Below are positions 1 to 59,100 of a stretch of 64,000 bases of DNA, in pieces (the first letter of the stretch is position 1; every line of letters begins with the position of its first letter). Position numbers and translations under genes: made by a program. The notes under the pieces are model-generated. The model searched no databases, was not told where the DNA came from, and saw nothing but the letters and a program-made list of their open reading frames with translations. The stretch spans positions 62,001 through 126,000 of the forward strand of contig JABVCE010000007.1 of NCBI GenBank assembly GCA_014905635.1. The letters are read 5' to 3'. The stretch comes from Scenedesmus sp. PABB004 (Eukaryota).

Positions 1-203
1 CGGGCGCTGCCGCCGAGCGTCGCGGCGCTCACCGGGCTGCGCAGCCTGAGCATGCACTACTGCCTCCGCCTGAGCGCCCTGCCGGACGGCATCTGCGACC
101 TGGCTGGCCTCGAGACGCTCTCGCTCAGCAGCTGCAGGCGCGGCGCCGGCGCGGCAGCAGCGCGGCCCGCCTCCCGCCGGCGGCCGCGCCCTGACGCCGC
201 CCC

Positions 204-255
<52 letters not shown>

Positions 256-883
256 GCGCGCCCGCAGGCGCCTGGAGGCACTGCCGTCGGGCCTGGGGCG
301 GCTTGGCAGCCTCAAGAGCCTCTCCATCAGCGACTGCGGCCTGCGGGCGCTGCCGGACAGCCTCGGGTGCGTGCGCGCCCGCCGCGGGCGGCGCGCGGGC
401 GCCGCGCCGGCCGCGCCGGCGCGCCGCCGCCGACGCCCGCGGCCGCGCCGCAGGTCGCTGCCCGCGCTGCGCGAGCTGACCATCACCAACTGCCGCATGC
501 TCACGAGCCTGCCCGCCTCCCTGGGCGGTCTGGTCGCGCTCGAGTCGCTCAGCCTGTGCCTGTGCCTCGCGCTGGAGGCCCTGCCGCGCAGCATCGGGTG
601 CGCGCCAGAGGGCCGCGCCGCCCGAGTCGCCTGCCGCGCCGGCGGCCTGCCGCGCGCGCGCGCGCTCACGCGCCCGCGCCGCCCGCCGCGCGGCGCGGCC
701 AGGCGGCTGTCACGGCTGCGCGTGCTGGTGCTGCACTACCTCTGCCGCCTGACCGCGCTCCCGGACGAGCTCGGCGCGCTGCGCGGCCTCGTCTCGCTCA
801 GCGTGCTGGGCTGCCCCGACGTCTTCGCGCTGCCCCGCATGGACACGCCCCTGCTCAAGGAGCGCACCGTGCAGCTCCGCTGA
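1..883 (+). CDS. Leucine-rich-repeat protein, 3' part (5' end outside window)
   Basis: Spliced exons (~1-137, 268-367, 454-597, 703-883) give repeated LxxLPxxLGxLxxLxxLxLxxC units (LRALPDSLG, LTSLPASLGGLVALESLSL, LTALPDELGALRGLVSLSV); stop TGA 881-883. Confidence 0.85.
205..253. repeat. (GCC)n intronic microsatellite; a similar run lies at ~63118-63157
   Basis: Pure CCG/GCC run inside the first visible LRR-gene intron. Confidence 0.85.
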
Positions 884-1953: not shown

Positions 1954-4900
1954 TCACTTGACTCCCTCGAGCTCGTCGTCCATCTCGCCGTACAGCCGGC
2001 GCAGCCGCTCGAGCAGCTCCGGCGCGGGCGCCCACAGGCCGCGGCCCGCGGCCTCGAGGCAGCGCGCGAGGACGTTGCGGAAGGCCTGCGGGTTGGCCTG
2101 CCGCAGCGTGTCGGCCATCTCACGGTCCAGCACGTACGTCTCCGCCGCCTGGCGCCCGGCGGCGCAGGGCGGCGACACACGCGGTCAGCGTGGCGCGGCG
2201 CGCGCACTGGCCGCGCGCGGCACGGCGCCCCGCAGCCGCGGACGCGCCGCGGGCGCGCGGCGTCACCTGGTCCCACGCAAACTTGTCGGCGTAGCCCACC
2301 GTGCCGCCCCAGCCGACGAGCGCGGTCATGCGGGTGCTGATCTCGTACGCGCCGCCGCTGCCCTGCGCGGCCATGGCCGCCGCCCAGCGCGGGTTGAGCA
2401 GCTTGCTGCGGTACTCCAGGCGCAGCACGTCCTCCAGCTCCCGCGGCGCCACGTCCTTGCTGCGCGTGCGCACAGAGCGGCCGGGTTGAGGGCACGGGCG
2501 GCGGCGCAGCGGCGCGCCGCCGGCGCGCGGGCGCCCCTCTCCCGGCGCGCGGCGCGCGCGGGCGCACCCAAACGTCTCGACGATGCTGCAGCCCACGGGC
2601 TTGCCCTTGCGCGCGGCCTTGGCGGCCGCCACGAGCGCGCCGGTGTTTGCATAGTACTCCTGGGGTGAGGGGAGGCGCGGGGCCCGGGGCGCGGGGCGGG
2701 GTGAGGGGCGGGAGGGTGGTGGTGGTGGTGCGGCGTCGGCGTCAGCGACAGGCAACGGGCGCCGCGCGGCGGCGACGCGGCGGCGGCGGGCGCGCGCCTG
2801 TATGTCTGTGAGGCCGTACTCCACGCTGTCAATCTCCTGCACCACGCGCTCGCAGCTGCCCAGCAGCGCCTGCAGCACCTCCGGCCGCGCCACGCCGCGC
2901 TCGCCGCCCTTGCCTGCGCCGCGCCGAGCAGGGGGCCGTGGGACGGCGTGGGCCTCGGCCGCGCGCCGCCGCGCTGCCGCCGCGGCGCCGGCCGCGTGTG
3001 GGGCGGTCGTCGCGGCGCGGCGCCGCACCGTAGCTGAACGCGTTGCGCGCGGCCCACGTCTCGCCCAGCTCCTCGCTGCTGCCCCAGCTGCCCGCGCCGA
3101 CGCGCTCGTTGACCATGGACCCGTAGTCGCCGGCGGGGTTGCTGAACAGCCGCGCGTGCGCGCCGCGCCCCGCGCCGGCGGCGGCGAGCGCGCGCGCGTG
3201 CTTGGCGATGTAGTTGGCCTCGTCCGGCTCGTCCGCCGCCGCCGCGGCGGCAAAGAGCGCGTCCAGCAGCTCCACCACGTTCTGGAACGCGTCCCTGCGG
3301 GGGCGGCGGGGGACGGAGGACGGGTCAGCACGCGAAACCCAGCGCGGCGCGGGCGACCGTGGGCGGCGGGGGCCGGCGGCGGGGGCCGGCGCGCCCCGCG
3401 CGCCCCGCCTGCGCGTCGCCGCCCCGCCGCGAGCACCCCCCCCCCCCTTGCACGCATGCGTCGCGCGCCGCGCCTGAAGATGCCGCTCATGTTGCACAGG
3501 CAGTCCACGCGCGGCCGGCCGCCCAGCTCGCTCAGCGGAAGCAGCTCGTACCTGCGCGTCGCCGCGCAGGCGGGCGCGCCCAGCGCTCGGCGCCGCGCCC
3601 CCGCGCGCCGCGCCGCAGCCGCCGCGCCGCGCCGCGCCACGCGCCGCGCCGCGCCGCTGCCGCGCCGCAGCCGCGCGGCGCCGGCGCACCGCGCGATGCG
3701 GCCGGTCCCCTCCTTGACGGGCCGCGCGCCGACCATGTGCAGCACCATGCCCACGCTCTCGCCCTTGGTCTTGATCGCGTCCAGGCCCCACAGGTTAATG
3801 GCCACGGTCTCGGGCCACGCGCCGCCGTTGGCCGCGCGGTGCGCGTCCAGGATGGCCGCCGCCGCCGCCGCGCCGCGCGCCTGCGCGGGGCGCGCGCGGC
3901 GCGGGGTGGAGCCGCGCCCACACGCGCGCGCGCGGCGCGCGGCAGGGGATCGGTGGCGGGGGCGGGGGCAGCCGCGCCGCGCCGCGCGTGCGCGCGCGCG
4001 GCTGTCACCTCTGCCGCAGGGCTGGGCATGCGGTAGGGGTCGAGCGCGTGGATGTTGCGCCCTGACGCCGCGTGTGCGGGGCGAGCAGGGGGCGCGGGCG
4101 TGAGCGGGGGACGAAGGTATGAGCGGGCTGCCCCCTGCAGCCGCGGGGCGAGTGCGTCGCCGCACAGCGCGCCGCCGCCGCACCGGTGGGCAGCACGCCG
4201 GGGCCGTCGCGCAGCAGGTCGCCGCCCGCCTCTGGCGGCACCCAGCCGCCGTCGAGCGCGCCGAGCAGGCCGGTCAGCTCCTCGCTGTTGCGCAGCAGCA
4301 GCCCCCGGATGGTCTCTGCCTCGTCCAGCAGCTCCGTGGGGCTGCGCGCCTCGCCGCCAGCGGCCGCGGGCGCGGGCGGCGCGCCGCCGTCGGCGGGGGG
4401 CTGCGCGCGGCGGGGGGCAGGGCGGGCAGGCGGGCGGGCGGTGAGCGCGGGCGCCGTGCGTCAGCGCGGGCGCGCGCCGCCGCCCGCCGCCGCCCCTTCC
4501 TTCCCCACGGGCGCCCGGCCGCGCGCCCGCCGCGTTGCGTGCCTGGCGCCACGCGGCCTCCAGCGCGGAGCGCGCCGCGTCCATGCCGCGCCCGTCCGCG
4601 AGCGCCGCGAGCGCCGGCTCCGGCAGGGCGTCGCCGTAGTACGCGGCCAGGTAGGCCGCCATGGCTGCCGGGCCGGGCGGCGCGCCGAGGACGTGGAGGC
4701 CCTCGCTGAAGAGGCGGCCCTCGAGCAGCTGCAGGTAGGCGTGCAGCCGGTCAACCCAGGCCAGGAACTCGGCGTCGTCCACGCCCGCCGCCACCTCCTC
4801 GCCACTCAGCGCGCCGCCGCCCTCGCGCAGCGGGCAGTCGGACTGCGGGCGCGCGCGGGCGGGCGGACGAGCGCGCGGGCGGCGGCGCGGTCGGCGGGAC

Positions 4901-7900
4901 GCGGTCGGCTGCGCGCGGCCGTGCGCCCCCGGCGCCGCGCGGCGCCGGCGCACCTGCAGCCCCGCCGAGTCGACCGCGCCCAGGATGGCCTCCCGCAGGC
5001 TGCCCACGGCGCCGCGGTCGGCGCGCACGTCGCTGATCAGGTCGCGCAGCGCCGACAGCTGCTTGTACAGCCCTGCGCGGCGCCCGCGCGGCATAGGGGG
5101 CGGCGGGCGGCGGGCGGCGTCACACAGAGGGCGGCGCGCGCGGGGCGCGTGGGGGCCGTCGCCGTGTGTCGCGCCCGCCCGCGCGCCGCACCCGCGCGGC
5201 CGTATGGCGGCACGTTGTGGCTGACGATGGTCCCGTAGCTGCGGGAAGGGGCAGGATGGTCACGCGCGGCGGCGGCCGCGCGGCGCGGCGGTCGCCCTGC
5301 GCGCGCGCGCCGCGCCGCGCCGCGCTGCGCCGCGCCGCGCCGCGCCGCCGCACCCGCGGCGCTTTGCGACGATCGACTCGCTCGGGTTGTTGGCGGCGTA
5401 GAGGTACACGTTTGGCAGCGGGCCCAGCAGCACGTCGCTCCACGACTGGCGCACCGCACACGGCGCGGCGCGCGCGCGTCAGGGCGCGGCAGGCGCGGCG
5501 GCGGCGGGGCGGGCGCGCGGCGTGCCGCCCCAGCGCGCACCAGGCCGGTGTTGCCGAGCGGGCTGCCCGGGAGCCACTCCACGGTGCCGTGCATGCCAAA
5601 ATGCACCACCGCGTCGGCGCCGTACCCCTGCGACCACGCGGCGCGACGCGCGGGCGCACGCCGTGAGCGCGCGCGTCTGGGCCGCCGCCGCGGCGGCAGT
5701 GGCGGAGGCGGCCACATCCCCCACCGAGCGCCGCGCGGTGTGAGGACGCACCTCCTGCAGCCACTTGTACGCGGCCGCGTACTGTGGGTGCGGCGTGAGG
5801 TCGCGCTCAAACAGCAGGCGCATGGGGTCGCCCTCGAGGCCCAGCAGCGGCTGCACGCCGATCCAGAGCTTCCCCAGCGCCAGCCCCGGCACGAGCAGGG
5901 CGCCCGCGCTGGTGGAGGCGATGCCGCGGTAGCTGGCCAGGCGGCCCCACGCCGCCTCCATGCGGCGCACCAGCACGTCCTCGTCCGGCAGGAAGGGCAT
6001 GGGGCCCCACTCGGTCGGGCCCCAGCCGCGCGGGAAGGTCAGCGCCGCCGCGAGCTCGGCCGGCGACACCTCGGCCGCCGCGGGCGACACGCCCCACGCC
6101 TCCGCGGCGCCCGCGCCCGCGCGCAGCACGCCCGCCGCGCCCGCCGCGACCGTGCGCGGCTCCTCCTGCGCCCTGAGCGCGTCCAGCAGCGCCTCGCCCA
6201 GGCCCGCCAGCGCGCCGGGGCCGCGCGGCAGCGCGCCGAGGTCGTAGCCGGCCTCCTGCGGACCGGCGGACGCGGCGGCGCGGTGAGGCGGACAGCGGCG
6301 CGCGCGCGGCGGGGCCCGGCTCGCGCAGCGCGCGCGCCAGGGCGCGCGCGCGCGCCTGCAGCGCGCCCAGCAGCGCCTCGAGCGAGCGCGGCACGTTGAG
6401 CAGCGCCGCCGTGCCGGTCGCGCCGACGCCCGGGGGGAAGCCGTAGAGCATGAGCGCGACCTTGCGCTCCCCCGGGGGCTTGCGCCGCAGCGACACCCAC
6501 CTGCGCGCGCGGGGCACGCGCGGCGTGGCAGGGCTCGGCGCCGCGCCGCTGCCGCCGCGCCCCGCGCCCTGTGCCCCCAGGCCCTGCGCCCCCAGGCCGG
6601 GTGCCCCGCGCCGCGCCGTGCGCGCGCACTTGTGGACGCGCTGCGCGAGGCGTGTGACGCGCTCAGGGACGAGGAAGATGTCGTCCCCCACCAGCCCGCC
6701 GAGCGGCACGGTGTCGATCGCGCCGTCGAGCTCGGGCAGGGAGTAGAGCACCACCGACTGCAGGCCCTGTACTCCCTGCTCGCTCCAGCTGGCGAGGTCC
6801 TGGATGAGCAGCGGCGCGGCGACAAAGTAGGGCACGTCCAGCTGCCCCAGGATGGCCTTGGCCACCTCGGCCTGCCGCCCGCCCTCCATCGTGCCTGCGC
6901 GCCGCGGCGGCGAGGCCGGTCGGCGGCCGGGACGGCGCCGGGCGGCGAGCGCCGGGCGGCCAGCGCGCGGCGGCAAGCGCCGGGCGGCGAGCGCCGGGCG
7001 GCGAGCACGCGGCAGCGAGCGCCCAGCGCGCGGCGGGTGCGGCGGGGGGTGGTGGTGGTGCGCGCACCCGCGGGGCCGCCGACGAGGGGGAAGCCGATGG
7101 TGGAGACGACCGCGTCGACACGCACCGCGTCGCGGCGCAGGGTGCCGCGCGGCGCGCCGCCCGCCGCAATCGCCGCCTGCTCCGCCGCGCTCGTGAGCTG
7201 GTCGCGCACCACGGTGTGCGCCTCGACGCCGTTGATGAACACCGGCACCGGCAGCAGGCCCTCCGCCTCGAGCTGGCTGCGCGGGACGGCGCGCGTGGCG
7301 CGTCAGACCGGGCGGCGTCAGACCGCCGCCAGCTTTCGAGCCTGTCAGCGCGCGTCGCGGCCCCGCCCCACCGGCCGCGCGGTCCACCCCCCCCCCCCTT
7401 CCGCCCCCCTCCTGCGCGCGCCTGATGAGCTGCGCCACGTAGGGCTGCTCCGTGATGACGTGCTTGCGGTACAGCAGCACCCCCACCACGGGCGCGGCGG
7501 TGCCCCGCAGCGGGCCCTCGCGCGCGTACCTGCGAGCCGGCGGCGCAGCGCCGCCGCGGCACGCGCGTCGGCCCACGTGCAGCCCGCGCGCCGCGCCGCG
7601 CGGCGCCGGCGTGGCGCGCTTGGGGGCGGGTGCGCGGCGGGTGCGCGGCGCTCACCAGGCCATGTACTCTGCCGGCCCGCCCAGAACGTGCCCGGGCGGC
7701 TGGGGTGCAGGCAGCCCGTCTGCGGCGTCTCCACCGGCGGCGGCGGCGGCGGCAGGCCCGCGGGGCAGAGGTGCTGCTCCGCGAGGTAGCTGAACATGGA
7801 CACCACGTTGGACAGGCCGCCCTGCGCGCACCCGCGCACCGCCGCAGCGGCAACGGGCGGTGAGGCCGGCGCGGCGGCGGCGGGGCGGCGGCGCGGGGGC

Positions 7901-9627
7901 GGCGCGGCGGGGCGGCGCGGGCGCCTGCGGCCAGCGCCCTGCGCCCCGGGCGGCGCCCGCGCGGCGCGCCTGGTTCCAGTAGGAGTAGATGGTCAGCCAG
8001 CTGCGCAGGTCGCGCGCCTGCGCGGCGGCGGCGCGGTGCGCAGCGGGCGGCGGCGCGTGAGCGCGCGCGCGGGCCCCGCCGCGCCCCGCCGCGCCCCGCC
8101 GCGCCGCACGCCTTGCGCCCTGGCACGAAGCGCAGGAGCGAGGGGCCGAGCTTGAGGAATGAGAGGTAGCCGGTCAGGCGGTCCTCCTCGCGCCCGCTGC
8201 CAAACAGGCCCAGCACCTTTTTCACCGCGGGCGGCGGGCCCTTGGACTTGCCTGCCCCGCGCACGCACGGGCCGGCGGCGCGGCGGCGTGAGCGCGCGGG
8301 CCGGCGCCGCGCGCGCCGCGCGCCGGCGTGGAAGCAGCGCGCTGCGCGCCGCGCGCGCCGCACCCGAGGGGTCGAGCGCGAATGAGCCGAGGCGCGTCAT
8401 GCCCATCAGCTCCAGCGCGCTCTCAAACACGAGCACCACCGGCACGCCCGCGACCGCGCCGCGCAGCCACTCCACGGTGTCGTAGTCAAACAGGAGGCTG
8501 CCGAAGAACGCGTCCGCGCCCGCCAGCGCGGCGGCGACCTCGGCGCGGCGCGCCGCGACGTCGCGGTCGCTGAACACGCGCAGGCTCACGTGCGGCGCCG
8601 ACGCCGCGAGCGCCGCCGCGGCGGTGTTGTAGAGGGAGACGTTGAACGACTCAAAGCCGCACACCAGCACGATGCGCACGGGGCGCACGCCCGGCGGCAG
8701 GCGCCGCGGCGGCGCGCCGGCCGCCGCGGCGCCGGCCGCGGCGGCGCCGGGCGCGGCTGGCACGCCGAGGCCCTCGCGCTTGGCCGCCTCGCGCGCCGCG
8801 ACGTCCAGCAGGCCGCGTGCGTCCGCGAGCTGCCCCGCGAGCCGCTGGCGCCGCAGCTTGAGCGTCTGCAGGCCCGACTGGAAACCCGGGTCGGCCGCGG
8901 CCGCGGCGTCGAGCAGCGCCACGAGCAGGCGCGGGTTGTCGCGGCCGAGCGCGGCAAAGGCCGCCTCGTCCAGGTCGGGGAAGGTATGGACCTCCGGCTC
9001 GCCGCCGTCGCCGCGCGCGCCGCCGGCCAGCGGCGCAGGCTCCGCGGGCAGCGTCACGGCCACGCCCGCAAACGTGGCACGCACGCGCTCGTCGATCTCG
9101 CGCTGCAGCTCCGCCATCTGCGCGAGCGCCGCGCCGCCGGGCGGTGTCGGCGGCGGCGCCGGCCGGTGTGGCGGCGGCGCCGCCCCCGCGCGGGCGGTGT
9201 GGCCACGGCGCGCCGCGCTGCCGTTGTTGAGGCTGCGCCGCGCCGGCGCCGCCGCGCAGGCGCCGGGCCGATCGGCGCGCCCTGGCCGCGCCCATGCGAG
9301 TGCGCGCGCTACGCCGGGCGCCCCGCGGCGCACCTGGGCCTCCAGCGCCGCCACCTCCGCCGCTGCTGCGCCGCCGCGCCGGGCCTGCTCCGCCTCCTCC
9401 GCCGCCTCCGCCGCCTCCTCCGCGTCGGCCTGGGCCCCCAGATCGCGCTTCACGCTCTCAATGAACTCCTCCGCGCTGCTGCGCGCGCCGGGGGCCTCTC
9501 CCAACACTCGCGCGGCCACGCGGCGCGCGGGCAGCCGCCGGGGCGCGCCGCCTGCGCGCCGAGCGCATGGCACCGCGACCGGGCGCGCCCCCGGCGGCCC
9601 TGGCCGGCGCGCCGCGGCGCGCAGCAT
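1954..9627 (-). CDS. CHLH2: Magnesium chelatase H subunit, CHLH2/BchH-like type, 24 inferred exons, probable plastid transit peptide
   Basis: Motifs IVLVCGFESFNVSLY, STIGFPLVGGPAG, GDPMRLLFERDLTPHPQY, VHFGMHGTVEWLPG, LYAANNPSES, LPTGRNIHALDPY, RLFSNPAGDYGSMVN, EYRSKLLNPRW, ending DELEGVK; ATG 9627, stop 1954-1956. Confidence 0.9.
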
Positions 9628-9972
9628 TGCCGCGTGGCAGCAGTGCGCCTGCTGCTGGTCTCTCGCCTGCTGCTGGGCGCCCTGCGTGCGTGGGGCGGTG
9701 TGGTTCTGCTCCGGGCGGGCGGGCGGCGACGTGTGAGCCCTGGGCGCGCCGGGAGTCGCCGGTCAGCGCGCGGTTCTGCCTTTGTCGCGGCGGCGCGCGG
9801 GCCAGCGCGCTCGCACCGGTCCCCGGCCCCGCCCGCACCCCGACAATCACCGCCGCCACCCACCGCCGCCGTGCCACCAGGCGCCGCCGCCGGTGCCGAC
9901 CGCGCGCAGCCTCCGCGCGCCGCCGCTGCTCCGCGCGCCGCCCGCGCGCCCGGGGGCGGGCCGGCGGGCGCC

Positions 9973-12130
9973 ATGAGCTTCCGGGAAGTGCGACGTGAGC
10001 GCGCGGCGCCGCCGGCGGCTGAAGACGGGCCCGCGCCGCGCCGACGCCGACGCTGCGCCTGGGGCGCGCGCAGTGTTTGCGGAGACGATGCGCGCGCTGG
10101 GCTACCCGCGGCTCATCTCGCTGGAGAACTTTCGCTCCCCCAACTTTGAGCTCGTGGCCGACTGCCTGCACTGGCTCATCCAGCGGTGCGCCGCGGCGCG
10201 TGCGGGGTCCGGCGCGCGCGCGCCGCGGTCGCAGTGTCGCAGCCGCGCGGCCGCCGCCACCCACGCCCGCGCGTGGGCCGCCGCCGCCGCCGCCCCCACC
10301 GCCGCGCCGGGCCAGCTTCTACCCCGAGTGCGCCATCGCGGACGACATCGGCACCGAGGCGCAGCGCGTCGCGTTCCTGCAGGCCGTCGCGGGCGTGACG
10401 GCGGCCAAGGCGCGCATGCGGCTCAACCTGCGCCGCCTGTACGCCGCCGACGGCGCGGCGGTGCGGGAGCTGCTCAAGCTCGCGAGCCTGCTGCACCGCG
10501 CGACGCGCAGCGCCGAGACGGGCGAGGAGGTGCGGGCGCGGCGGAGCGCGGGGCGGGGCGCGCGGGTGCGGCGCCGGCCGCGGCGCCCCGCCCGAGCGCC
10601 CCGCCCGCCCGCTTGCCCGCAGGAGTCGCAGGAGGCGGCCGACCCGGCGACCGCGCTGCGGCTCTTTGACGCCGCGGGCGCGGCGGCGGCGGCGTCCGAG
10701 GTCGCGCGCTGCGGCGTCGCGCTGCACGACGGCCTGCTCGCGGAGGCCGGCGCGCTGCGCGAGGCGCGCGCGCGCGCGATCGCGGCGGCGCACGACACCA
10801 GCGCGGTGGGTGCGGGGGGCGACGCACGCGCGCGGGGCGGGGGCGCCCGCAGCTCGGCGGCCGCCGCAGCTCGGCGCGGGGCTGAGCGGCCGCGCGCGCA
10901 CGCGGGCGTGCCAGGTCGAGGCGGGCATCCAGGAGACCATCGCCGGCCTCGCCGACGCGCTCGCGGGCCTGCGGGCCAAGGCGGCCGAGGCGGGCGCGAG
11001 CGAGGCGGCGCTCGCGGCACGGGTGGACAAGCGGCGCGGCGAGCTGGAGCGGGCCGAGAAGCGGCTGGCCACGCTCGCGGGCGTGCGGCCGGCCTACATG
11101 GACGAGCACGACGCGCTCACTGCGCAGCTGCAGGCACGCATGGGCTCGCGGGGGCGCTGCCACCGCCGCAGCTGCTGCAGCCGCCACGCCGGCCCTCTCT
11201 TGGTTGCCGCGCGCACCCGCCGCCGCGCCCTGCCGCCGCCCACGCCCGCCCCGTCCCGCCGCCCGCCCCGCCCCGCCCCCGCCTGGCAGGTGCTGTGGCT
11301 GCACTACCTTGAGCGCCACCGCAACCTGCAGTACCTCGAGGCGCAGCTCGACGGCTACCACAGGGCGGAGCAGGCCGACGCCGACGCGGCGGAGCGGCGC
11401 CGACGCAAGATGCAGCGCCGCCTCGCGTGCGCGGGCACGGGGCGCGGGCGCGCGGGCGGCGGCGGGGGCGGGCTGCCGGCCCGCGCCACGCGCGGCGGCG
11501 CCCCGGCTGCCAGGCGGCGGCCGACGCGCCGCGCGCCGCGCGCGCGCCCGCCGCAGCGAGGAGGAGCTGCGCATCCTGCGCGGCGAGGCGGCGGTGGACG
11601 AGGCGCGCCTCGGCGGCGCCAGCAGCGACGACAACGGCGGCACCGACAGCGCGGACGACAGCGTGGCCACACGCAGCGACACGGGCGGCCGCCGTGGCGG
11701 CGGCGCGCCCGGGCGCCGGCCGCCGGCGGCCGGGCAGGCGGGCGCCAAGCGGCAGAGCTTGGTGCAGCCCGCAAAGCGGCCAGACGCGGGGCAGGTGGGC
11801 GGGCCGGCGTGCTCGAGCCGCCGCCAGCCAGCTGGCGCGCGCTCGCGGCTGGCCGCGCGCGCTCACGGCCGCCGCGCCGGTCGACGCGCGCCGCAGGTGG
11901 TGGGCTCGCTGGCGCCGCCGGGCGGCTGGGAGGAGGAGGACGACGACAGCATCGACGACGACACCGCCAGCGACGGCGGCGACGTCTCGCGCCTCGGCTC
12001 GGACCGCTCCGACGGCGGCGACGCGGGCGGGCGGGGCGGCGGCTTCGGCGGGCTCGCGGGCGGCGCGGGCCAGCTCACCGACAGCGGCGGCGGCGGCGGC
12101 CCGCCCGAGAGCGAGGACTCGGGGTTTTGA
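9973..12130 (+). CDS. CLUAP1: Clusterin-associated protein 1 / IFT38 (intraflagellar transport B)
   Basis: [73 protein letters not shown]; acidic tail ending ESEDSGF; about 7 introns. Confidence 0.92.
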
Positions 12131-12501: not shown

Positions 12502-13497
12502 TCACTGCAGGGAGGGCTGGACCTGCCAGATGAGCAGGCGCTTGCTGGCGGGGTTGAAGGCGTCGTAGACCTTGCGGTTGGCCAGGATCATCTTGCTCAC
12601 GTGCGCAGACACGTCCTTGGGCTGCGCGCGGCGCGGCGCGGCGGTTGAGCCGAGCGGCGCGCGCCTGCCGCCGCCGCGGGCCCCGGCGCGGGCCCCGCGC
12701 GCGCGCGCGCGCGCCTGGGTGTGGTTGATGTGCTCGAGCATGAGGTTGCGGGAGACGGCGGAGTAGCGCAGGTCGCGGTCGTACGCGTGGTTGAGGCGCC
12801 ACACGTTCTCGTGGTACTTTTTGAACGCCGCGTTCCAGCTGTACGCCATCTTCTCCTGCCGGTACAGCGCGGGCAGGATCCAGGACTCGTAGTAGTACAT
12901 GAAGTACGCTGCAGCGCCGGGCGGCGGCAGGCAACAAGGGGAGGGGGGGCAGAGGAGGGGGCAGTCGCGGGGTGAGGCCGCGGGCGAGCGGGGGCGCGGC
13001 GGCGCCGCGGTGCTGCGCTGGCGGCGCCGCGGCGCTGCGCGCGGCCGGGCGCGGCGCGCACCCATCATGAGCCCGCCCATCGCGCACTCCTGCGGGGCGG
13101 CGGCGGCGGCGCGCGCGGGCGGCGCGTGCGGGCGGCGATCGGCGGCGGCCGGGCGCGCGCCGGCCGCGCCGACAAGGCGCCCCGACCGCGGCCGCTGCCG
13201 GCGGCTCGATGCGCTGACCGCTGCCCGCACGCCGCGCCGGCGCGGCGTGCCGCCGCCGTGCTGCTGCCGCTGCTCCGCCGCGACGGCCCGCCTGCGGCTG
13301 CTGCCGGGCCCGCTGCTTCCAGATCAGGAGGTTCGGGCCGGCAACCCGTCGCTCAACAGCCCCCGGCGCGCCCAGGCGCAGCCGCGCGCCGGCGACGGCC
13401 CGCGACCGCCCTCCCCCGCCCGCGCCGCGCGGCAGGCTGCCCTGGACGCGTGCTTCCCGGACCGCACCTGCGCCAACGCATTGGAAACGAGCTGCAT
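12502..13497 (-). CDS. ASA5: Mitochondrial ATP synthase-associated subunit ASA5
   Basis: Four exons give MQLVSNALAQ|ECAMGGLMMG|AYFMYYYESWILPALYRQEK...HINHTQ|PKDVSAHVSKMILANRKVYDAFNPASKRLLIWQVQPSLQ, matching the chlorophycean ASA5 C-terminus as I recall it (KVYDA..SKR.LIWQV.P). Confidence 0.85.
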
Positions 13498-18457: not shown

Positions 18458-18488
<31 letters not shown>

Positions 18489-18902: not shown

Positions 18903-18936
<34 letters not shown>

Positions 18937-19394: not shown

Positions 19395-19409
19395 GCCTGG
19401 GGCCGCATG

Positions 19410-27905: not shown

Positions 27906-27910
<5 letters not shown>

Positions 27911-39863: not shown

Positions 39864-39897
<34 letters not shown>

Positions 39898-46116: not shown

Positions 46117-46183
<67 letters not shown>

Positions 46184-47913: not shown

Positions 47914-49853
47914 TCAGCGCGCGGCCTCGCCCGGCTGCGCCTGCGCCGCCGGGTGGGCGTGCAGGAGGTGCACCACGACCGCGGTGATGTCGTCCACCAC
48001 GCCCTCCTCCTCCGCCACCCAGCGCCGGTGCGCCTCGTCCACCAGCTGCCCCCCGCGCGGCGGCGGCGGCGGCGGAAGCGGCGGCGGCGCTGGGCGCGCT
48101 GCTGCGCCGGCGCTGGGCGGCGCGCGGCGGCGGTCGGCCGCGCACGCCCGGCGCGCACCAGGCGGGCGCCGTCCTCCGGCGTGTCGGTGCTGCCCACGAG
48201 CTCCACCGCCTCCTGGCTGCTCATGAGCTCCCACACGCCGTCGCTCGCCAGGATGAGCAGGCGGTCCGCCGGCGTGAGGCTCACCTCGGCGACCTGCGGC
48301 TCCGAGCTCACGCCCACGCTGCGGCGGCGGTGCGGGCCAGGGGCGGCCCGTTGGCGGGCGTGTGCGCCGAGAGGGCGCGCGCGGGCCGCGCGGCCGCGCG
48401 CCGCGGCACACGTGTGCGCCAGCTGGTCGCCCAGGGCCCGGCTCATCGCGAGGCCGGGGATCCACGCCGCCTGCAGCCACACCCTGTGCGGGCCCATGGG
48501 CTGCCCCTCCTCGTCGACCAGGCTGCGCGCGCGGCGGGCGCGGGATCGGCGGCCGGCGCGGCTCGGCGCGGCGCGGCGCGGCGCACGCCCGCCCCCGCGC
48601 CGGCGCACGGCCTGCGCCCGCGCACCGCTCGACGCGGCCGTGGCTGGCGGCGATGCGCGCGGCCTCCTCGGGGAGTGTGGGCTTGTGGTCCGCGCTCAGG
48701 TCGGCCGCCGCCCAGCCGCGCCCTCGCCCCTCCTGGCGCCCCAGCACGACGCGGCTGTCGCCGACCCACGCGCACACGAGCTTGCTGCCCTGCGCGGGGG
48801 CACGTCGGGGGCACGTCGGCGGCGCGCCTGCGCGTCTGCCGCCGTGCCGCGCGCCCGCGCGCCGTGCCCGCGCGCCCGCGCGCCGTGCCCGCGCGCCCGC
48901 GCGCCGTGCTGCGCGCCTGCATGTGCACGAGCGAGCAGGTGCTGCCGCTGAACTCGCAGTCCACCGCGCTGCGCGCGAGCGCGGCGTCCACGTCCAGGAA
49001 GCTCGACCGCAGCGCGCCGGGCACGTCCTGCCCGCCGCTGGTGAGCGCGGCGACGAGCAGGCCGGGCAGGTGCTGCTTCACGAAGCCCGACACCAAGTGC
49101 CCTGGGGCGTGTGGCGCACGTGCGGCGGTGCCCGTGCGCCGTGAGCTGCGGCGGGCGGGCCGGCGCGCGTGCGCGCGCGCACGCGAAAGCGCACGCGGCG
49201 CACCGTGCGGGCCGTGGCCGTCGAGGGCGCAGAAGAGCGCCTGCTGGTGTGTGACGAAGCGCTCGTACGCGAAGCAGTTGTCCTGGTTGGTCTTGCGGTA
49301 CCCCGGCTCGCGCCCCGCGACGCTCACGCACGCGACCGCGACCTCGACGGGCCGCGCCGCGCCAGGCGCAGCGCCGGCCTCACCGGCGGCCCCGACCCTC
49401 TCCGACGGCGCAGCCTGCGGGCGGCGCGGGCGCGCGGGCTGTCAGGACGGCCCGCACGCGGCGTGGCGCCGGCCCCGGGCGGCGCGCGGTGGGCTCACGC
49501 TGCCGGCTGTGACGCAGGAGAGGTCTCGCGCGCGCGCGCCGCCGCCGCCGTCGCCGCCCTTGCTGCCGCCGCCGGCCGAGACCTGTCGCAGCTCCGCCGA
49601 GCCGTCCGCGCCGCGGAGGAGCGTCATGGGGCGCACCGCCCTGGCCTCCACGGAGTAGGACAGGCGCCGCGCGCGCGTGGTGGCGGCCTTGCCGCCGAGC
49701 GCGGCTGCGCGTGGCGCGGGCAGGGTCGGGCGCAGCGCGCCGCGCCGCGCCGCGCGCGCCGCCGCGCAGCGCGCCCGCCGCCGCACGTTGCGGCTCGCGC
49801 AGCTCGTCGCCGGCCTCCCCAGACCGCGGGGGCCTGGAGGAAGCGCAGCCCAT
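47914..49853 (-). CDS. PP2C/PPM protein phosphatase, probably N-myristoylated
   Basis: MGCASS start; KTNQDN, FCALDGHGPHG, FSGSTCS, AWVGDSRVVLG, LSADHKP, PGLAMSRALGD, LILASDGVWE, DDITAVVV. Confidence 0.9.
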
Positions 49854-50303: not shown

Positions 50304-52007
50304 ATGCAGCTCCAGGCGCGGGCGTTCAGGTGCGCCGGCGCCCGACCGCGGACCGGAGCGACGGCGCGCGGGGCGCGCCGCTGGGGCGCAGCGCGCGCGC
50401 CGCGGCAGCCCCTGACCACGGACGTCGCCGCGCTCGCAGGGCCGCTGGCGCGCCGCGCGGCTCCGCCAGGCCGCAGCCGCAGGTGAGGGGCGGGGGGCGG
50501 CCCCCGCGCGCCGCGTGGGCCCGCCCAATTGGCGCCAGGCTCACCCCGCGCGCCGCGCGCTGCCCCCAGGCCCGCGGGCGAGTGCTGCTCTCCGCGCAGG
50601 CCAAGGCGGCCGCGCCCACGGGCACGGAGGAGTACATTGAGGTGCGTCAGCGCGTCGTGGGCTCGCCAGCGCCGCCGAGCGCGTCGCGGCGGCGCTGGCA
50701 GCGGCGCTGGCAGCGGCGGCAGCGCCCAGACCGGCCGGGGCGCCGCGCCGCCGCCGCGCGCAGGTTGACCTGCCCAAGCCGCTGGGCCTCAAGTTTGCGC
50801 GCGGCGCGGACGGCGGCGCGTACGTGACCGTGAACGACCCGCAGCTGGGCAACACCGACCCCCGCATCCAGGCACGCAGCACGCGCACGCGCCGGCGGCG
50901 CCGGCGGCGGCGGCGGCGGCCGCGTACCAGGGGACGGCAGCAGCTGCGCTGCGCTGCGCGGCGAGGGGGGCCCGAGCGCCGCAGCGCCTGACGCCCCGCC
51001 GCCGCCCGCGCGCCACGCGCCGCCGCTCCTCGCCCGCCGCGCGGCCGCCCGCCGTCACCAGCCCGGGGACAAGATCACCAAGATCAGCGCCTCGTTCGGC
51101 AGCGACGTGTGGGACGCGCAGAACTTTGGGCAGATCATGTACGCCATCCGCACGCGCAACGGCACGGTGTACATGCAGATCAAGCGCAACTTTGGCGACA
51201 TGTCGGCGCTGCAGGTCGGCCGCGGGGTCGGGCGCCGGCCGCGGGGGCGGCGGCGGCGCGGGGGCGACCCGGGCGGCGCGGCCGGCCGCTGGCGCGCCGC
51301 CCGCGCGCCGTCGCCGCTGACGCGCGCGCGCCGCCGCCGGGGCGCAGGAGGAGGTGATGGACGCGGCGGAGCGCCAGGCCAAGTCGGAGCGCGCGGGCGG
51401 CAACTATGGCGCGGGCACCAAGGAGCTGCAGTCGCGCAACTACGTGAGCCGCAAGGAGCAGGAGCGCAAGCGCCGCGAGCTGTTTGACGACGCGCTCGCA
51501 AAATTCAACAAGGGCGACGTCGAGGTGCGGCCACGTGGCCCCCGCCAGCCGCCCGCGCCGCGCGCCAGCCGCCCGCGCCGCGCGCCAGCCGCCCGCGCCC
51601 CGTGCCGCGCGCCCGCCTGTGCCCGCGCGCACGCGCGCGCGCCCACCTCGCGCGGCGCGCAGGGCGCGCTGGTTGACTTTGAGAACGTGGTCGCGCTGGA
51701 GCCGCGCAACTACGTGGGCGACAACCTCAGCCGCGTGACGCCGATCCTGCCGGTCGCGCACTACAACATCGCGTGCTGCTACTCCATGCTCGGCCAGGCG
51801 GACGAGGGCGTGAAGAGCCTCGACCTCGCGATGGCGTGCGGGTTTGAGGACTACGCCAAGGTGCGCAGCGACAAGAACCTCGCGGCCGTGCGGGGCAGCC
51901 CCAAGTTTGAGCGCCTCATCAACATGTACGACGAGCCCGTCATCAACTGGGCCGCCGTCGAGAACACGCTCGGCGTGTTCGGCAAGCTCTTCAAGAAGGA
52001 CAAGTGA
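50304..52007 (+). CDS. MET1: Thylakoid PDZ/TPR protein MET1 (TEF30/ZKT)
   Basis: [91 protein letters not shown]; transit-peptide-like N-terminus. Confidence 0.88.
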
Positions 52008-52390: not shown

Positions 52391-55300
52391 ATGATGGCGC
52401 CCGCGTCCCCGCCGCTGGCGGAGATCCCGGCCCTCCTGGCGGCCGCCTTCGACGGCCGCGATCATGCCGCGGCGTTCAGGGCGGTGTCAGAGCACTTTGC
52501 GGCCGCGCACGCGCGCTCGCCGGAGGCCCTCGCCCAGGTCCGGCCACACGGCGCGCCCGGGCTCGCAGGCTGCCGGGGCGCTGGCAGGCACGCTCCTCGC
52601 CAACATGCGCCGCGCCGCCGCAGGTGCCCGTGCTCAGCCGCGACACCGCGGACGGCCTCCCGCCCAGCAGCCTCGTGCGCCTGCGCGGCATGGTGCGCGC
52701 CGCGGCGGCCCCGGATCACGCTGAGATTGCGCTGGCGCCCCCGCCCCGACCGCCGCTGGCGCCCCCGACGCGCTGCTCGCGCGGCCGCGCCGCCGCCCAC
52801 GCCGCGCCCCCGCCCCCTCCCTGCGCGCCCAGGTGGCGGACATGTTCAACCCGGAGTTCTTCCTGGGCGCCTACCGCCTCGCCCCCGACCAGCCCTGGCG
52901 CCCGGGCGCGCTCTACACCGACGCGGGTGCGCGCCGCGCGTGCAACGCCTCCTCCCTCGCGGCCGTCTGCTGCCGCGCCGCGCTCTCTGACTCTCTGTCC
53001 CCCTCGTGCCGCCGCGCGCGCGCGCACGCGGCCGCACAGTGCCGGACGAGGTTGACGCCGCGGGCGAGACGACCATCATGGAGCGCCGCCCGCTGCTGGT
53101 CGTGCCCGTGCCGGGCGAGCAGCCCTGGGCGACGGCGGCGTGGGCGGGGCGCCCCGTGGAGCCGCCGACGCCCTGTGAGCGCCGCCGCCGGCGCGCGGCG
53201 GCGGAGCGCGCGCGCGGCGCGCCCGCCCGCGCGCCCGCCCGCCCGCGCGCCCGCGTGCGCGGGCCCGCTCACGCCCGCCCGCCGCCCGGCCGCCCGCCCG
53301 CAGCCGCGAGCGAGCGCGCCAAGCGCGTGCGCGAGCCGAGCGCCGAGCCCGCGGCGGGCGGCGCCGCGGCTGACGACGGCGGCGACGACACCGGCGCGGC
53401 GCGCCCCGCGGGCGCCAACAAGGCGCAGCGCGTCGCCGGCGGGCCCGAGCCCGGCGCGCCAGCGGTGGAGCTGGACGCGCTGCGCCGCAGCGGCGCCAGC
53501 GACCAGGGCCGGCCCCAGCCCGCGGGCGCCGCGGACGAGCACGCGGCGCGGCAGCCGGCGTTTGCGCCGGGCGACTGCATCGTCCAGGTGCGCGCGCGCC
53601 CCCGGGCCGGCCCCGCGCCGCCGGGCCTGGTCTGCCCCGCGCCGCCTGGCCCCGCGTCAGCGCGTGCCGCGCCGCCCCGACCCCGGCTCCACCCCAGGTC
53701 TACGGCGCGGGCGACAGCCTGGCGCTGCATGACGTGGTGGAGGTGCTCGGCGTGCTGAGCGTGGTGCCAGACATTGCGGCCATGCACATCGCGCGCCGCG
53801 GCGCCGGCGAGCGGGGCGGCGGTGCCATGCAGCTGGACGGCGACGACGGCGACGACGTGGGCGGCGACGCGGGCGGCGACGACGTGGGCGGCGCCAACGC
53901 CGACGCCGACGCCGGCGGCTTTTGGGAGCACCGCACCGCGGCGCTGCCGCCGACCAGCCAGGTGCGGCGGGGGCGCGCGCGGCCGCTCGCAGGCGCAGCA
54001 GCCGGCCCTGCGGCGCCGCCGCGCGGGGGCCCTCGCCCAGCCGCCCGCGCGGCCGCAGGTGCTGCGCCTGCACGCGCTGACCATTCGCAAGGTGGCCCCC
54101 AACCCGGCCGCCGCCAACCCCGAGCGCGCGCTGGCGCTGCCGCCGGCGGCGCAGCTGCCGGCGCTGCGCGCGGCGGCGCTGTCGCTGCTGGCGGCGCCGC
54201 TGGCGGGCGACGAGCTGGCGGCCGAGTACCTGCTGCTGGCCAGCCTCGGCCAGGCGCGCGCGCGCGGCGGGCGCGGCGGCGCGCGGCTGCTGCCGCTGCC
54301 CCGCGCGGTGCGCGGCGCTGGCGCCGCGCCGCTGGCGCTCACGCGCGTGGGCCCCGCGCGTGCAGGTGGTGGACCGCGAGGCGGGCGGCGCGACGGGACT
54401 GCTTCCGCTCAACCTGACGCACGTGCCCGCCAGCGCCGGCAGCAGCAAGGGTGAGGCCGCGCCACATCGCCGCCGCCGGGCGCCGCAGCGCCGCAGCCCC
54501 CGGCTGACACCGCCCTGCCGCCGCGCCCGTGCCCGCGCACACGCAGCCTGCCAGCTGGTGCCGGGCCTGGCCGCCGCGCTGGGGTGCCTGCTGCCGCACG
54601 TGTCGCTGCTGCCGCTCAGCACGGCGTCGCTCAACGCGCGCCGCTGGTACCCGCAGCAGCACGGCGACAGCGGCCGGCTTTTCCGCGGCGCGCTGCAGCT
54701 GCCGGACAGCGCTGTGCTGCTGCTCGACGAGACCGGCATGGCGGCGGGGCAGCTCAGCGACGCGGGGGTGAAAAACCTGCAGGTCCGGCCGCGCGCGGGG
54801 CGGGCGGGGGCGCGGCGGGCCGCAGCCGCGGCCCGGCACGCGCCGCGCCGCCGCGAGCGGCGTGCTCACGCGCCGCCGCCGCTGCCGCCGCGGCGCGCCA
54901 CAGGCGCTGCGGTCGGTGCTGGAGCAGCAGCAGCTGCCGTGCGACTGCCAGGTGTACACGACGACCCACAACGTCAACACGCCCGCCGTCGTCCTCAGCA
55001 CGGGGCGCAGCGTGCTGCGCGAGAGCCTGCCGCTCGCGCTGCCGCTCGTGCCGGCGCGGCCCGTGCTGGTCAAGCCGGGCTTCGAGGACCAGCAGCAGCG
55101 CGCCGGCGGCGGCGCCTGCGCGCCCGCGCCGGCCGACTGGCTCGCCGCCGACGTCGCGGGGCCGGAGGCCGTGTCCGCCGCCGCGGCGGGCCTCGGCGGC
55201 GCGCTGGGCGCGGTGCGCGACTACCTGGCGGCGGCGCGGCGCGCGAGCGTGCGGCTGGACCAGGCGGGCGCGGAGGCGTGCGTGGCGCGCTTCCGCGCCG

Positions 55301-55678
55301 CGCAGGCGGCCGACCCCGGGCTGGGGCTGGACGACCTGCACCGCCTCATCACGGTGCGCACAGCGCGGCGCGGCGCGGTGATGCGCAGCGTGGCGGGCGG
55401 CGCAGGCGCGGCCCAGGCGCCAGGCAGCGGGCGAGGACCGTCGGCGGCGAGGGCCGCGCCCGCCCACCGCCACGTGCCCGCTCGCCGCCGCGCCGCAGAT
55501 GGCCAAGCTCCTCTCCGCCAGCCTGGGGCACGAGGCGTTCAGCATGGAGAGCTGGGAGCGCTGCATGCAGCTCGAAGCGCTGCGCAAGGCGCGCGTCGCC
55601 GCCGCGGCACCGCCCGCCGCGGCCGCGCGCGCGGCAGCGCCGCGCGCGCCCGCGCCGGCTGCGCGCGCCGCGGCGTGA
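52391..55678 (+). CDS. MCMBP: MCM complex-binding protein (MCMBP/ETG1)
   Basis: SLVRLRGMVADMFNPEFFLG, ERRPLLVVPVPGEQPW, DVVEVLGVL, GDELAAEYLLL, GALQLPDSAVLLLDETGMAAGQLSDAGVKNL, MAKLLSASLG; stop 55676-55678. Confidence 0.88.
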
Positions 55679-56195
55679 TGCTGCTGCTGTGCCGCCGGGC
55701 GTGATGGGCTTGTGCGTGGTGGCGAGAGAGCGAGAGCGGGGCGGCAGTGTGGGGGCGGGCGGCCGCGCGCTCGGAACAGCGCGCACAGCAGCGGCAGGGG
55801 CGGGTGCCGGTGACACGTCGCCGCGGCGGCTCGCGGTGAACGTCACGGTAAACGCCGGGCGGTTGCGGTCGGGGCGGCGCCGGCCGCGGGGCGGCTGGAC
55901 CGGCGGCACCAGGGCACAGGCGTTCGTCCGCTGCTGCGCCGCCGGTGACATGCCGCTCCGCCTTGCATGGCGCGTCCGGTCCGCCGGTGCCATCGCCTTC
56001 GACCCCAGCCGCAGCCCCGGACCCTGCCTCGCCCCGTCCGCGCGCCAGGCGCCTCGCGCAACGGGCAGCATCGGGCGGCAGCAGGGGCCTCGAGACAGCG
56101 ATCGCCGCAGCGCGTCGCGGCCGCGCTTTTCCAACCTGTGTTAGAGCGCGGCGGCGGGCCATGCGGCGCTGAGGGCGCGCCGGCCGACGACGCTC

Positions 56196-59100
56196 ATGGC
56201 GGGGCGCTCGCGGGCGGCGCTGCTGGCGCTGCTGGGCCTCGCCGCCCTGGCGGCGCCGCTCGTGGGCGCGCGCAGCGGCCTGTACAACACCACGGGCGGC
56301 CCGGTTGCGGGCAAGCTCAACGTGCACATCATCAGCCACACCCACAACGACCCGGGCTGGCTGTCGAGCTATGTCCAGTATCACCGCACGCTGGTGCTGG
56401 ACAACCACGTCATCGGGGGCGTGGAGGCCATCCTGGACACGAGCGTGAGCGCGCTGGTCGACAACCCGGACCGCACGTTTGTGTACGCCGACCTCGCGTT
56501 CTTCACAAAGTGGTGGCAGGAGCTGCACGAGGACACGCGCGCGGTCGTGCGCCGGCTCGTGCAGGAGGGGCGGTTCGAGTTCACCAACGGCGGCATCACG
56601 CAGCACGATGAGGCGACGAGCCACTACTCGGGCATGGTCGACCAGATGACGCTGGGCATGACGTTCCTGCGCGAGGAGTTTGGCGTCTCCCCGCGCATCG
56701 CGTGGCAGCTCGACGGCTTCGGCCACTCCCGCACCGAGCCGCTGCTCAAGGCGATGGGCGGCTTCGACGCGCTCTTCTTCGGCCGCTCCGACGTCGCCGA
56801 CTTTGACCAGCGCAAGGCGGCGCACAACCTGGAGCTCGTGTGGCGCGGCAGCGAGACGTACGGGGCGGAGAGCGACCTCTGGATGAGCCAGTACCCCACG
56901 GGTGAGCCCTGGGGTGGTCAAACGGGACCAGCAGGGTTCAGCAGGGTTCAGCAGGGTTCACGGCTCAGGGCTCAGGACTGCAGGCCCTGCTGCCGCACGC
57001 CTGCTCACCGCCCCCGCGCGCCGGCGCCCGCGCCCGCGCCACAGGCAACTACGGCCCGCCGAGCATGTCGTGGTTCTTTGAGCGCCGCAACGACTACGCC
57101 AAGCCGCTCGCCGACAGCGTCAAGGACGACCCCGAGGTGTGCGCCGGCGGCGGCGGCGCGGGTGCCGCGGCCAGCGGCGCCGGCGGCGGGCAGCTGCGCT
57201 GTGGGCGGGCGCGCGCCCGCGGCCCGCGCAGCTCGCCGGCGCGACCCCGCCGCCGGCGCGCGCCGGCGCGACCCCGCGCGCGTGGCCGCCGCCCTGCCTG
57301 CAGACGAACAGCTTCAACCTGGACGAGGTGGTCAACACCTTTGTGGCCAAGGCCAAGGAGTGGCAGGTGCGTCGCTGCGCCGGCGGCCGGCGGCGGCCCG
57401 TGCAGGCGCGGCAGCCGCGGCGGCAGCCGCGGCGGCAGCCGCTGCAGCGGGGGGCCGTCGCGGCGCGCCGACGCCCGCGCGTCCGCGGCGTGCGCGCCGT
57501 CCGCTGCGCAGGCGTGCGTGCAGGGCAACGACGTGATGTTCATGATGGGCTCTGACTTTACGCACAGCGACGCGCGGGCGTGGTTTGCCAACGTGGACAA
57601 GATGATCCACTACGTCAACAGGGACGGCCGCGTCAACGCGTTCTACTCCACGCCCAGCCGCTACGTCGCGGCCAAGCGCGGCGCGGGGCTCAAGTTTGCG
57701 CTCAAGACGGACGACTTCTTCCCCTACAGCGGCAACGCACAGGCGCGTGACGCTCTGCTGCGCGGCAAACCCTAGGGGCCCCTACGGCGCGGCGGCGGGC
57801 CCGCGCCGCGGCGGCGGCGGGCCCGCGCGCGCGCGCGCGCCGCGCCGCCCGCTCACGCCTCCGCCCCTCCCCGCCCGTCTGCGTCTTCGCCCGCCCGCCA
57901 GGGCACCGACTTTTGGACGGGCTACTTCACCAGCCGGCCCACGCTCAAGGCGCAGGTCCGGCGCGGCGCGGCGCTGCTGCAGGCGACGCGGCAGGTGGAG
58001 GTGCTCGCGGAGCTGCAGCCGAGCAGCCGCCGCCTCGCGACGAGCCGGGGGCTCGCGTACGACGGCGGCCAGGCGCGCAGCGAGACGGCGCGCCTCGGCG
58101 CGGCGCTCGCGCCGGGGCACGACGCCGCGGCGCTCGACTTTGCGCTCGCGACGGCGCTGCACCACGACGGCATCACCGGCACGCAGCGCGCCGCGGTCAC
58201 GCGCGACTACGAGGCCTGGCTCCACATCGCGACCGCCAAGGCCGCGCCCAAGTTCCTGCAGGGCCTCGCGGCGCTCGTCTTCCCGGGGCGCGGCATCAAC
58301 GCGCTGCGCCCCGCCGGCGCCGCGGCCGGCAACGCGACCGCCCCCGCCGGCGCCGCCGGCGCGGCGGGGCGCATGCCCGTCGGCGCCATCTACCGGCGCC
58401 GCCGCGCGCTGCACCAGGCCGGCGGCGCCGCTGCTGGGGCGGCGGCGGGCGCCGGCGCTGCCGGCGCCGGCGGCGCTGGGTCGGTGCCGGAGCTGCAGAT
58501 GTGCCTGCTGCTCAACGCGACGCTGTGCAGCGCGAGCGTGAGCCTGAGCCGCGGCCCCGGGTTCCTGCTGGTCGTGTACAACCCCCTGGCCTGGAGCTAC
58601 GAGTGGGGCATCACCGTGCCGGTCGACGACGGCGGCTACACCGTGACCGGCCCCGACGGCGCGCCCGTGGCGTCGCAGCTGCTGCCGGTCAGCCGCGCGG
58701 AGGAGGCGGCGTGGAAGCACACGGGCGCGCCGGACGGCGCGCCGCGCCCCAAGGCCAAGCTCGCGCTGCTCGTGTCGGCGCCGCCGCTCGGGCACGCGAC
58801 GTACACGGTCAAGCGTGGCGCCGGCGCCGGCGCCGCGGCGGCGAGCACGAGCGCGGGGCTCGCGGGCCAGGACGCGGCGCTGAGCACCGGCCCGCTGCGC
58901 GTGCGCGTCACGCCCGGCGCGGGCGGCATCGCGTCGATGAGCCTCGGCGGCGCCGCGGCGCACAACTTCACCACCGAGCTCATCAAGTACAGCGGCGGCG
59001 GGCTGTCGCGCAGCGGCGCGTACACTTTCAAGGCCAACGCCGCGCCCGACGGCGTGGCCAAGCCCGAGGTCACAATCGTGCGGGGCCCCGTGGTGTCTGA

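Follow-up and report, generated by a model that had tools for sequence, protein, structure and literature searches.

GC-AG introns, always after an exonic AG, are frequent among the predicted introns of a GC-rich stretch of the Scenedesmus sp. PABB004 genome

Results and discussion

We examined a 64,000-nucleotide (nt) stretch of the green alga Scenedesmus sp. PABB004 (contig JABVCE010000007.1, positions 62,001 to 126,000; hereafter the window) for introns whose 5' splice site, or donor, begins with GC instead of GT. GC donors are frequent here, they directly follow an exon ending in AG, and they match the standard donor consensus as well as the GT donors around them. The excess of GC-AG introns after exonic AG is thus confirmed as a property of predicted introns, and other GC-rich algae are known to show the same kind of excess. 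An original prediction, made from the letters of the DNA, had listed 21 such introns and had proposed a re-tuned 5' splice-site code involving altered U1 or U6 small nuclear RNAs (snRNAs). That interpretation is partly supported, in that the proposed frequency and AG rule are borne out while the re-tuned code is not needed. The common GC-AG introns are probably ordinary U2-type introns under strong G/C pressure, for which an unchanged splicing machinery would suffice.

The setting is one of extreme base composition. Across the window, G+C amounts to 74-81% per 4-kb bin, and the introns are short, densely packed, 88% GC and only ~6% T. Passages of two papers put Sphaeropleales genomes in print at up to ~72% GC (PMC7354681, PMC12571836).

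Conserved reading frames call for GC donors

All 21 coordinates do read AG|GC on the strand given, preceded by C in 18/21 (CAG) and by A in 3/21 (AAG). The four donor hexamers named originally all occur, GCGCGC at 11 sites, GCACGC at 4, and GCGTGC and GCAAGC at one each, but the list was incomplete, omitting GCGCGG (3) and GCGCGT (1).

Introns were delimited with a spliced protein-to-genome dynamic programme (DP) that allows any phase, requires an AG acceptor, penalizes GT and GC donors equally and makes no use of flanking sequence. For CHLH2, where seven GC donors among 23 introns had been claimed, the DP with a Tetradesmus homolog (P0001) recovers exactly those seven sites. The homolog alignment crosses all seven junctions without gaps, and several are identical residue for residue. 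Allowing GC beside GT raised the DP score from 5125 to 5456. Among control dinucleotides put in place of GC, CG did best at 5376, with donors placed 3 nt away from the GC sites, and GG, CC, TG, GA, CT and AG followed at 5326 down to 5194. The seven CHLH2 introns thus have no usable GT and are fitted best by GC. An eighth GC call in CHLH2, at 7660, was rejected as the product of a 1-nt frame slip, the true donor being the GT at 7655. In this minus-strand exon the reading frame shifts by one base at ~7672-7690, and the homolog match switches frame until that GT donor; the slip reflects an indel in the assembly or else a genuine frameshift in a gene that is otherwise intact over ~1,470 codons.

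The claim that conserved frames demand a GC donor at every one of the 21 sites stood for the 18/21 where homologs, PDB chains or Pfam profiles anchor at least one side of the junction and a GC start and an AG end restore the conserved frame, whereas 138, 20926 and 50872 are supported by reading frame, coding periodicity and the absence of any GT that could serve. When all GT alternatives that keep the frame and avoid stops were listed systematically, only 17587 had one within 3 codons, 6 nt downstream. As an overall statement, from which the entries for 11134 (at least 17 codons lost or at least 4 gained) and 2797 differ, the other GT alternatives lose at least 4 codons or gain at least 6 in conserved sequence, or shorten the intron to 52-58 nt, compared with 86-216 nt for the 57 validated introns. 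The length of 15/21 GC introns is not a multiple of 3, and their retention would therefore wreck the conserved protein downstream.

GC-AG introns make up about a fifth of the predicted introns

Four genes could be aligned fully, and in these GC-AG introns account for 13/49 (95% confidence interval 15-41%). CHLH2 contributes 7/23, MCMBP 1/10 (the GC donor at 54254), the conserved part of a cyclic-nucleotide-binding-domain gene at 37-41 kb 3/11, and the third copy of IST1 2/5 (17587 and 17890). Introns in low-complexity ends were dropped before counting, namely 41419, 42312, 41679 and 37754, together with 18825 and three IST1 introns derived from homolog P0031. Three donors were substituted: 7660 by 7655, 53639 by 53588 and 38554 by 38560. 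The rejected MCMBP call at 53639 disappears with another homolog, which takes the GT at 53588.

Nineteen loci were also put through a crude ab initio pass, first with GT only and then with AG|GC allowed at a small penalty. The pass placed 117 introns with GT only and used AG|GC in 22/119 (95% confidence interval 12-27%) once it was allowed. Eighteen of these 22 coincide with the 21 sites, 138, 8111 and 50872 being missed, and the pass adds candidate GC donors at 9551, 18843, 30622 and 51914. Per occurrence of the word, AG|GC was adopted in 22/259 cases (8.5%), compared with 4.0% for AG|GG, 1.3% for AG|CG and 0.9% for AG|CC. GC following GG, CG, TG, CC or GC was adopted at the noise level of 1.1-1.6%. 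The share of ~18% first proposed (21 in ~115) is a fair one, since the two approaches give ~18-27% in the window. Within these 64 kb, GC-rich nuclear DNA carries more than the ~10% GC donors that would mark such an excess and keeps its AG acceptors.

GC donors follow AG and match the consensus as well as GT donors

To describe the donor context we used 57 validated donors, 21 GC and 36 GT. As originally stated, the AG|GC context is strict and GT donors tolerate varied exon ends: AG occupies -2/-1 in 21/21 GC donors and in 14/36 GT donors (p=1.8e-6). The same holds for the four-gene set, delimited without flank information (13/13 vs 14/36, Fisher p=1.4e-4). Seen from the exon, GC was used in 13/27 donors after AG and in 0/22 after any other exon end.

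Each donor was scored for matches to the standard MAG|GURAGU, which pairs with U1, over 9 positions (in the form used in PMC3167603). GC donors average 6.10/9 matches and GT donors 6.28/9. Nineteen GC donors score 6 and two score 7; GT donors mostly score 7 with AG and mostly 6 without it, and the lowest score, 5, is reached by only 4/57 validated donors. With C in place of T at +2, a donor preceded by AG falls from 7 matches to 6, the modal value; one without AG would drop to 5 or 4. The GCAAGT type of intronic match is absent from the GC donors, as had been claimed. The rest of their 5' splice site is nonetheless stronger than in GT introns: besides the exonic AG, +3 is A in 5/21 GC donors vs 0/36 GT donors (p=0.005) and +5 is G in 21/21, with no gain at +4 or +6. 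The GT donors themselves are far from GTAAGT; 25/36 read GTGCGC or GTGCGG, and 28/36 have C at +4.

Other features of GC-AG introns resemble those of GT-AG introns. Median length is 130 vs 121.5 nt, GC content 0.895 vs 0.879, and a CGCAG acceptor ends 16/21 GC introns vs 22/36 GT introns. Phase differs, with 1/21 GC donors and 11/36 GT donors in phase 1 (p=0.04). We infer that GC donors are scarce in phase 1 because the A at -2 would there be a third codon position, which is almost never A in this genome.

Ordinary introns under G/C pressure, and the alternatives

These observations are consistent with a simple mechanism. The T at +2 would be one of the few intron Ts held by selection against the pressure toward G+C. 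After an exon ending in [C/A]AG, a T-to-C change would leave the consensus match at the level typical of GT donors, so that it would be tolerated and could spread; after any other exon end, the same change would push the donor below the usual match level and would be removed. The direction of change from GT to GC, its drive by mutation or gene conversion, and recognition by an unchanged U1 are the parts of this scheme that we infer. A re-tuned code is not needed because the exonic AG offsets the pairing lost at +2, and the claim that altered U1 or U6 is required is not supported, both donor classes matching the standard consensus equally well.

Several points weigh against this reading. GC is present in nearly half of the AG-preceded donors, far above the ~1% reached in plants and animals by compensation alone, and some relaxed recognition of +2 may be involved. 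The organism could have an altered U1, U5 or U6 snRNA. Some of the homologous proteins are themselves gene predictions made on other genomes, in which the same annotation errors could recur; the four-gene tally leaves out DP introns in low-complexity ends; and the sites 138, 20926 and 50872 lack homology support. At least one apparent assembly indel is present (in CHLH2), and base errors are possible in principle; such errors cannot explain the GC donors, because the pattern is tied to the exon end. A search of the 64-kb window for snRNA genes found no Rfam family. We also compared orthologous introns. A metagenome scan for ChlH gave 80 loci, by match span mostly intron-poor prasinophyte-like or cyanobacterial, and none of the three aligned CHLH metagenome loci (L025, L021, L009) shares a position with the GC introns of the window.

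A stronger form of relaxed recognition would hold that +2 is almost free after an exonic AG, with C in about half of donors, and strictly T otherwise, and that this reflects a lineage-specific change in U1, U6, U5 or a 5' splice-site protein. We consider this unlikely, though worth keeping in view; if true, it would be a relaxation of +2 recognition driven by a nuclear genome that ranks among the most GC-rich known. Slightly less likely is a re-tuned spliceosome in the sense first proposed, in which a changed U1, U6, U5 or 5' splice-site protein reads C at +2 nearly like U and the exonic AG becomes the main determinant. The very high GC share after AG (13/27) would fit such a change, as would the departure of the GT donors from GTAAGT and the intron side of the GC donors, which apart from the +3 A in 5/21 is not strengthened toward GCAAGT. 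However, the equal consensus match of the two classes means that no change is required, their acceptors, lengths and composition are alike, and other GC-rich algae reach 14-65% GC-AG introns with no altered snRNA invoked in the passages describing them.

GC donors might instead be kept by selection as weak introns whose slower splicing or retention tunes certain genes. Passages on other systems describe slower splicing of GC donors (PMC3167603), those on Emiliania huxleyi associate its GC donors with high intron retention (PMC4028052), and CHLH2 alone carries 7/23. Against this, the 21 sites are scattered over 12 unrelated genes with housekeeping, ciliary and metabolic functions, and exon context and phase by themselves account for which donors are GC, making regulation a quite improbable general explanation.

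It is very improbable that the GC donors are artefacts, that is, T-to-C assembly errors, mis-delimited introns that really use a nearby GT, or retained sequence that is translated. The assembly is imperfect, to judge from the apparent 1-nt indel in CHLH2, and two sites have a GT to hand, 17587 at +6 nt and 54254 with a consensus GT at +54 nt; the latter would leave an intron of 58 nt and add 18 codons that the MCMBP homolog lacks. Intron calling can also inflate the count: an ab initio finder in which GC was as free as GT called 12/27 in CHLH2 in place of the true 7/23, merged genes over the whole window and was discarded. Yet random T-to-C errors would ignore the exon end, which the AG before every GC donor contradicts, and retention conflicts with the intron lengths. 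Residues that the introns would encode are absent from homologs and from the Polytomella ASA5 structure sequence (chain 6rd4_5), in which residues 84|85 flank the intron at 12714 and exactly its 31 codons are unmatched. The smaller gain of the control dinucleotides points the same way.

U12-type introns have extended conserved donor and branch-site motifs. Apart from the non-GT start, nothing favors assignment of the window's introns to the minor spliceosome, and the idea can be almost wholly dismissed: their hexamers, GC[G/A][C/A/T]G[C/G/T], differ from those of GT donors mainly at +2 and are not of U12 type, and Chlorophyta are described in passages of PMC11347168 as having neither minor snRNAs nor minor introns.

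Comparison with known GC-AG introns

The original prediction regarded this frequency as unusual, which overlooked published GC-rich algal cases. GC 5' splice sites are described as compensated elsewhere in the site and as using the major spliceosome (PMC3167603), and splice-site GC content as tracking genomic GC across kingdoms (PMC7072748). In Emiliania huxleyi, 56-65% of donors are reported to be GC, a share confirmed by reverse-transcription PCR and RNA-seq and ascribed by the authors to a genomic GC content of 65% (Feldmesser et al. 2014, PMC4028052). That alga and ours are alike in being GC-rich, in having GC donors far above 1% and in keeping the AG acceptor. They differ in that Emiliania is a haptophyte with 56-65% at 65% GC, whereas the figure for the green alga is ~18-27% at 79% GC, as predicted from DNA. 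The text passages of that paper, figures aside, also contain no -2/-1 rule, in contrast to the strict AG found here.

In the pelagophytes Aureococcus and Pelagomonas, 14-17% of introns are given as GC-AG vs 0.32% in a low-GC relative (in passages of bioRxiv 10.1101/2024.10.30.620910), with ~14% in Pelagomonas according to parts of a separate report (10.1101/2021.10.25.465678). This frequency is comparable to that in the window and is likewise ascribed to high GC content. Pelagophytes, however, are stramenopiles, and many of their introns are described as introner elements with terminal repeats; no shared introner-like sequence was noticed among the introns of the window, for which no formal test was made. 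The GC-AG introns of animals and plants (~1%) share the major spliceosome and a +2 mismatch offset above all by exonic AG, according to passages of PMC3167603 and PMC7072748. Theirs are strengthened as GCAAGT, whereas the GC donors here resemble the local GT donors in being GCGCGC-like and are ~20-fold more frequent. Micromonas, another GC-rich green alga, carries introner elements whose donors are GT or GC, GC occurring after AAG (PMC4540971); those are repeated mobile introns of ~200 nt in a distant green-algal lineage. In our metagenome scan, contig L025 (68% GC) carries at 2800-8700 a prasinophyte-like CHLH with three putative introns of 184-212 nt, delimited by the DP, whose donors are AAG|GC in two and AAG|GT in one, reminiscent of introner elements.

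In the literature searched, with partial coverage and with figures and bioRxiv supplements outside it, we found no report of a GC-AG excess in a chlorophyte. Nor does that literature report for any chlorophyte the two-state rule at +2, C or T after AG and T otherwise. With the window, a chlorophycean green alga joins the haptophytes and pelagophytes in which GC-AG excess has been linked to GC content.

The practical weight lies in the annotation of very GC-rich algal genomes. A gene predictor restricted to GT-AG would misplace about 1 in 5 junctions here and damage most multi-exon genes; passages on Emiliania describe junctions of its first gene models misplaced by GT-trained predictors (PMC4028052). 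The window also offers a natural experiment on how much complementarity a 5' splice site needs, with GC donors confined to sites whose total match remains as high as usual, and may serve as a neat illustration of a complementarity threshold. Codon usage enters as well, as the near absence of third-position A restricts the intron phase open to GC donors.

Individual introns and gene content

The GC-AG introns are collected in Table 1. Pfam assigns Cluap1, ASA5, Ist1, TMEM17, SBP, DAGAT, PP2C, MCM_bind and GH38 domains around the sites.

Table 1. Predicted GC-AG introns of the window, with donor context and the evidence placing each junction
Gene	Coordinates	Strand	Donor	Evidence and remarks
LRR gene	138..267	+	CAG|GCGCGG	Phase 2; no GT in intron; joined exons hold 24-residue LRR register
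CHLH2	2660..2797	-	CAG|GCGCGC	DP, gapless identical junction; GT alternatives change at least 2 codons, with shifted acceptors
CHLH2	3295..3473	-	CAG|GCGCGG	DP, gapless junction, GT-alternative listing
CHLH2	4401..4542	-	CAG|GCACGC	DP, gapless; 3' side in variable stretch
CHLH2	6256..6355	-	CAG|GCGCGC	DP, gapless junction, GT-alternative listing
CHLH2	7277..7421	-	CAG|GCGCGC	DP, gapless junction, GT-alternative listing
CHLH2	7822..7969	-	CAG|GCGCGC	DP, gapless; no in-frame GT alternative
CHLH2	8018..8111	-	AAG|GCGTGC	DP, gapless; not adopted by ab initio pass
Cluap1/IFT38-like gene	11134..11289	+	CAG|GCACGC	PF10234 position 239 on both sides of junction
ASA5	12622..12714	-	CAG|GCGCGC	93 nt, in frame, no internal GT; PDB 6rd4_5
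IST1 copy 1	14074..14272	+		GC donor as at 17587; ab initio pass, copy identity
IST1 copy 1	14379..14478	+		GC donor as at 17890; ab initio pass, copy identity
IST1 copy 2	15827..16025	+		GC donor as at 17587; ab initio pass, copy identity
IST1 copy 2	16132..16239	+		GC donor as at 17890; ab initio pass, copy identity
IST1 copy 3	17587..17783	+	CAG|GCGCGT	DP with P0032, P0037 and P0031, gapless; rival GT 6 nt downstream
IST1 copy 3	17890..18000	+	CAG|GCAAGC	Sole phase-1 case; DP with P0032 and P0037; PF03398 positions 54/54
TMEM17-like gene	20926..21034	+	AAG|GCGCGC	Frame and periodicity only; GT alternatives -8 or +19 codons
SBP gene	22561..22690	+	AAG|GCGCGC	Inside SBP zinc-finger domain; PF03110 positions 1-28 in 5' exon, 34-74 from residue 7 of 3' exon
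Cyclic-nucleotide-binding-domain gene	38458..38560	-	CAG|GCACGC	No GT within 17 codons
Cyclic-nucleotide-binding-domain gene	39851..39974	-	CAG|GCGCGC	Gapless with P0027 and P0028; intron without GT
Cyclic-nucleotide-binding-domain gene	40315..40485	-	CAG|GCGCGG	Gapless junction
PP2C gene	48790..48916	-	CAG|GCGCGC	Nearest GT alternative -4 codons
Unnamed gene	50872..51061	+	CAG|GCACGC	Frame logic only; GT alternatives lose at least 14 codons
MCMBP	54254..54365	+	CAG|GCGCGC	DP with Tetradesmus protein P0025
GH38 alpha-mannosidase	57743..57901	+	CAG|GCGCGT	In-frame stop inside intron; flanked by jack-bean 6b9o_A residues 329|330

At 57743 the GC donor is the sole frame-keeping solution among GT and AG|GC sites, a GT 5 nt downstream being out of frame. 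GT alternatives at 22561 gain at least 11 codons. The 3' exon of 20926 matches PF09799, and that of 48916 can be aligned, starting at its first residue, with PPM1D (8t2j_A) and with PF00481 position 112; for the 5' exon of 48916 a PDB search gave no phosphatase and Pfam gave no match. Pfam likewise returned no match for the exons flanking 50872, the 5' exon of 20926 or the IST1 exon at 17524-17586. At 38560 the homolog alignments (P0027/P0028) prefer a GC donor at 38554 (CGC|GC), two codons downstream. The stretch is variable; a GC donor is needed here, and it may lie at 38560 or 38554.

An IST1 unit of ~1.76 kb, comprising the upstream region and 5' exons, is present in three tandem copies at 13500-18790 that are 96-100% identical, and only the third continues into the remainder of the gene. 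The triplication may be a genuine recent duplication or an error of assembly. The original list of sites held good for the third copy and passed over the four GC donors of copies 1 and 2, which are identical to 17587 and 17890.

The best homologs of three of the genes are Tetradesmus obliquus, Scenedesmus and Raphidocelis proteins, as befits a chlorophycean green alga of Sphaeropleales type. Best matches at 1957-9700, 37200-41600 and 52400-55600 carry the T. obliquus tags OEZ85_013777, OEZ85_013781 and OEZ85_013787, all on a single 5.8-Mb contig, which suggests gene order conserved with this much less GC-rich relative.

Short tandem repeats make up much of many introns, for example 138-267, 39851-39974, 22561-22690 and 48790-48916; they are runs of GCC triplets or units of 15-21 nt in 3-4 copies. 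The lower-GC stretches of the window (~74% per bin), at 900-1900 and 32000-36500, are intergenic or untranslated sequence plus one gene (34428-35985), which has unusually GC-poor second codon positions and no Pfam match.

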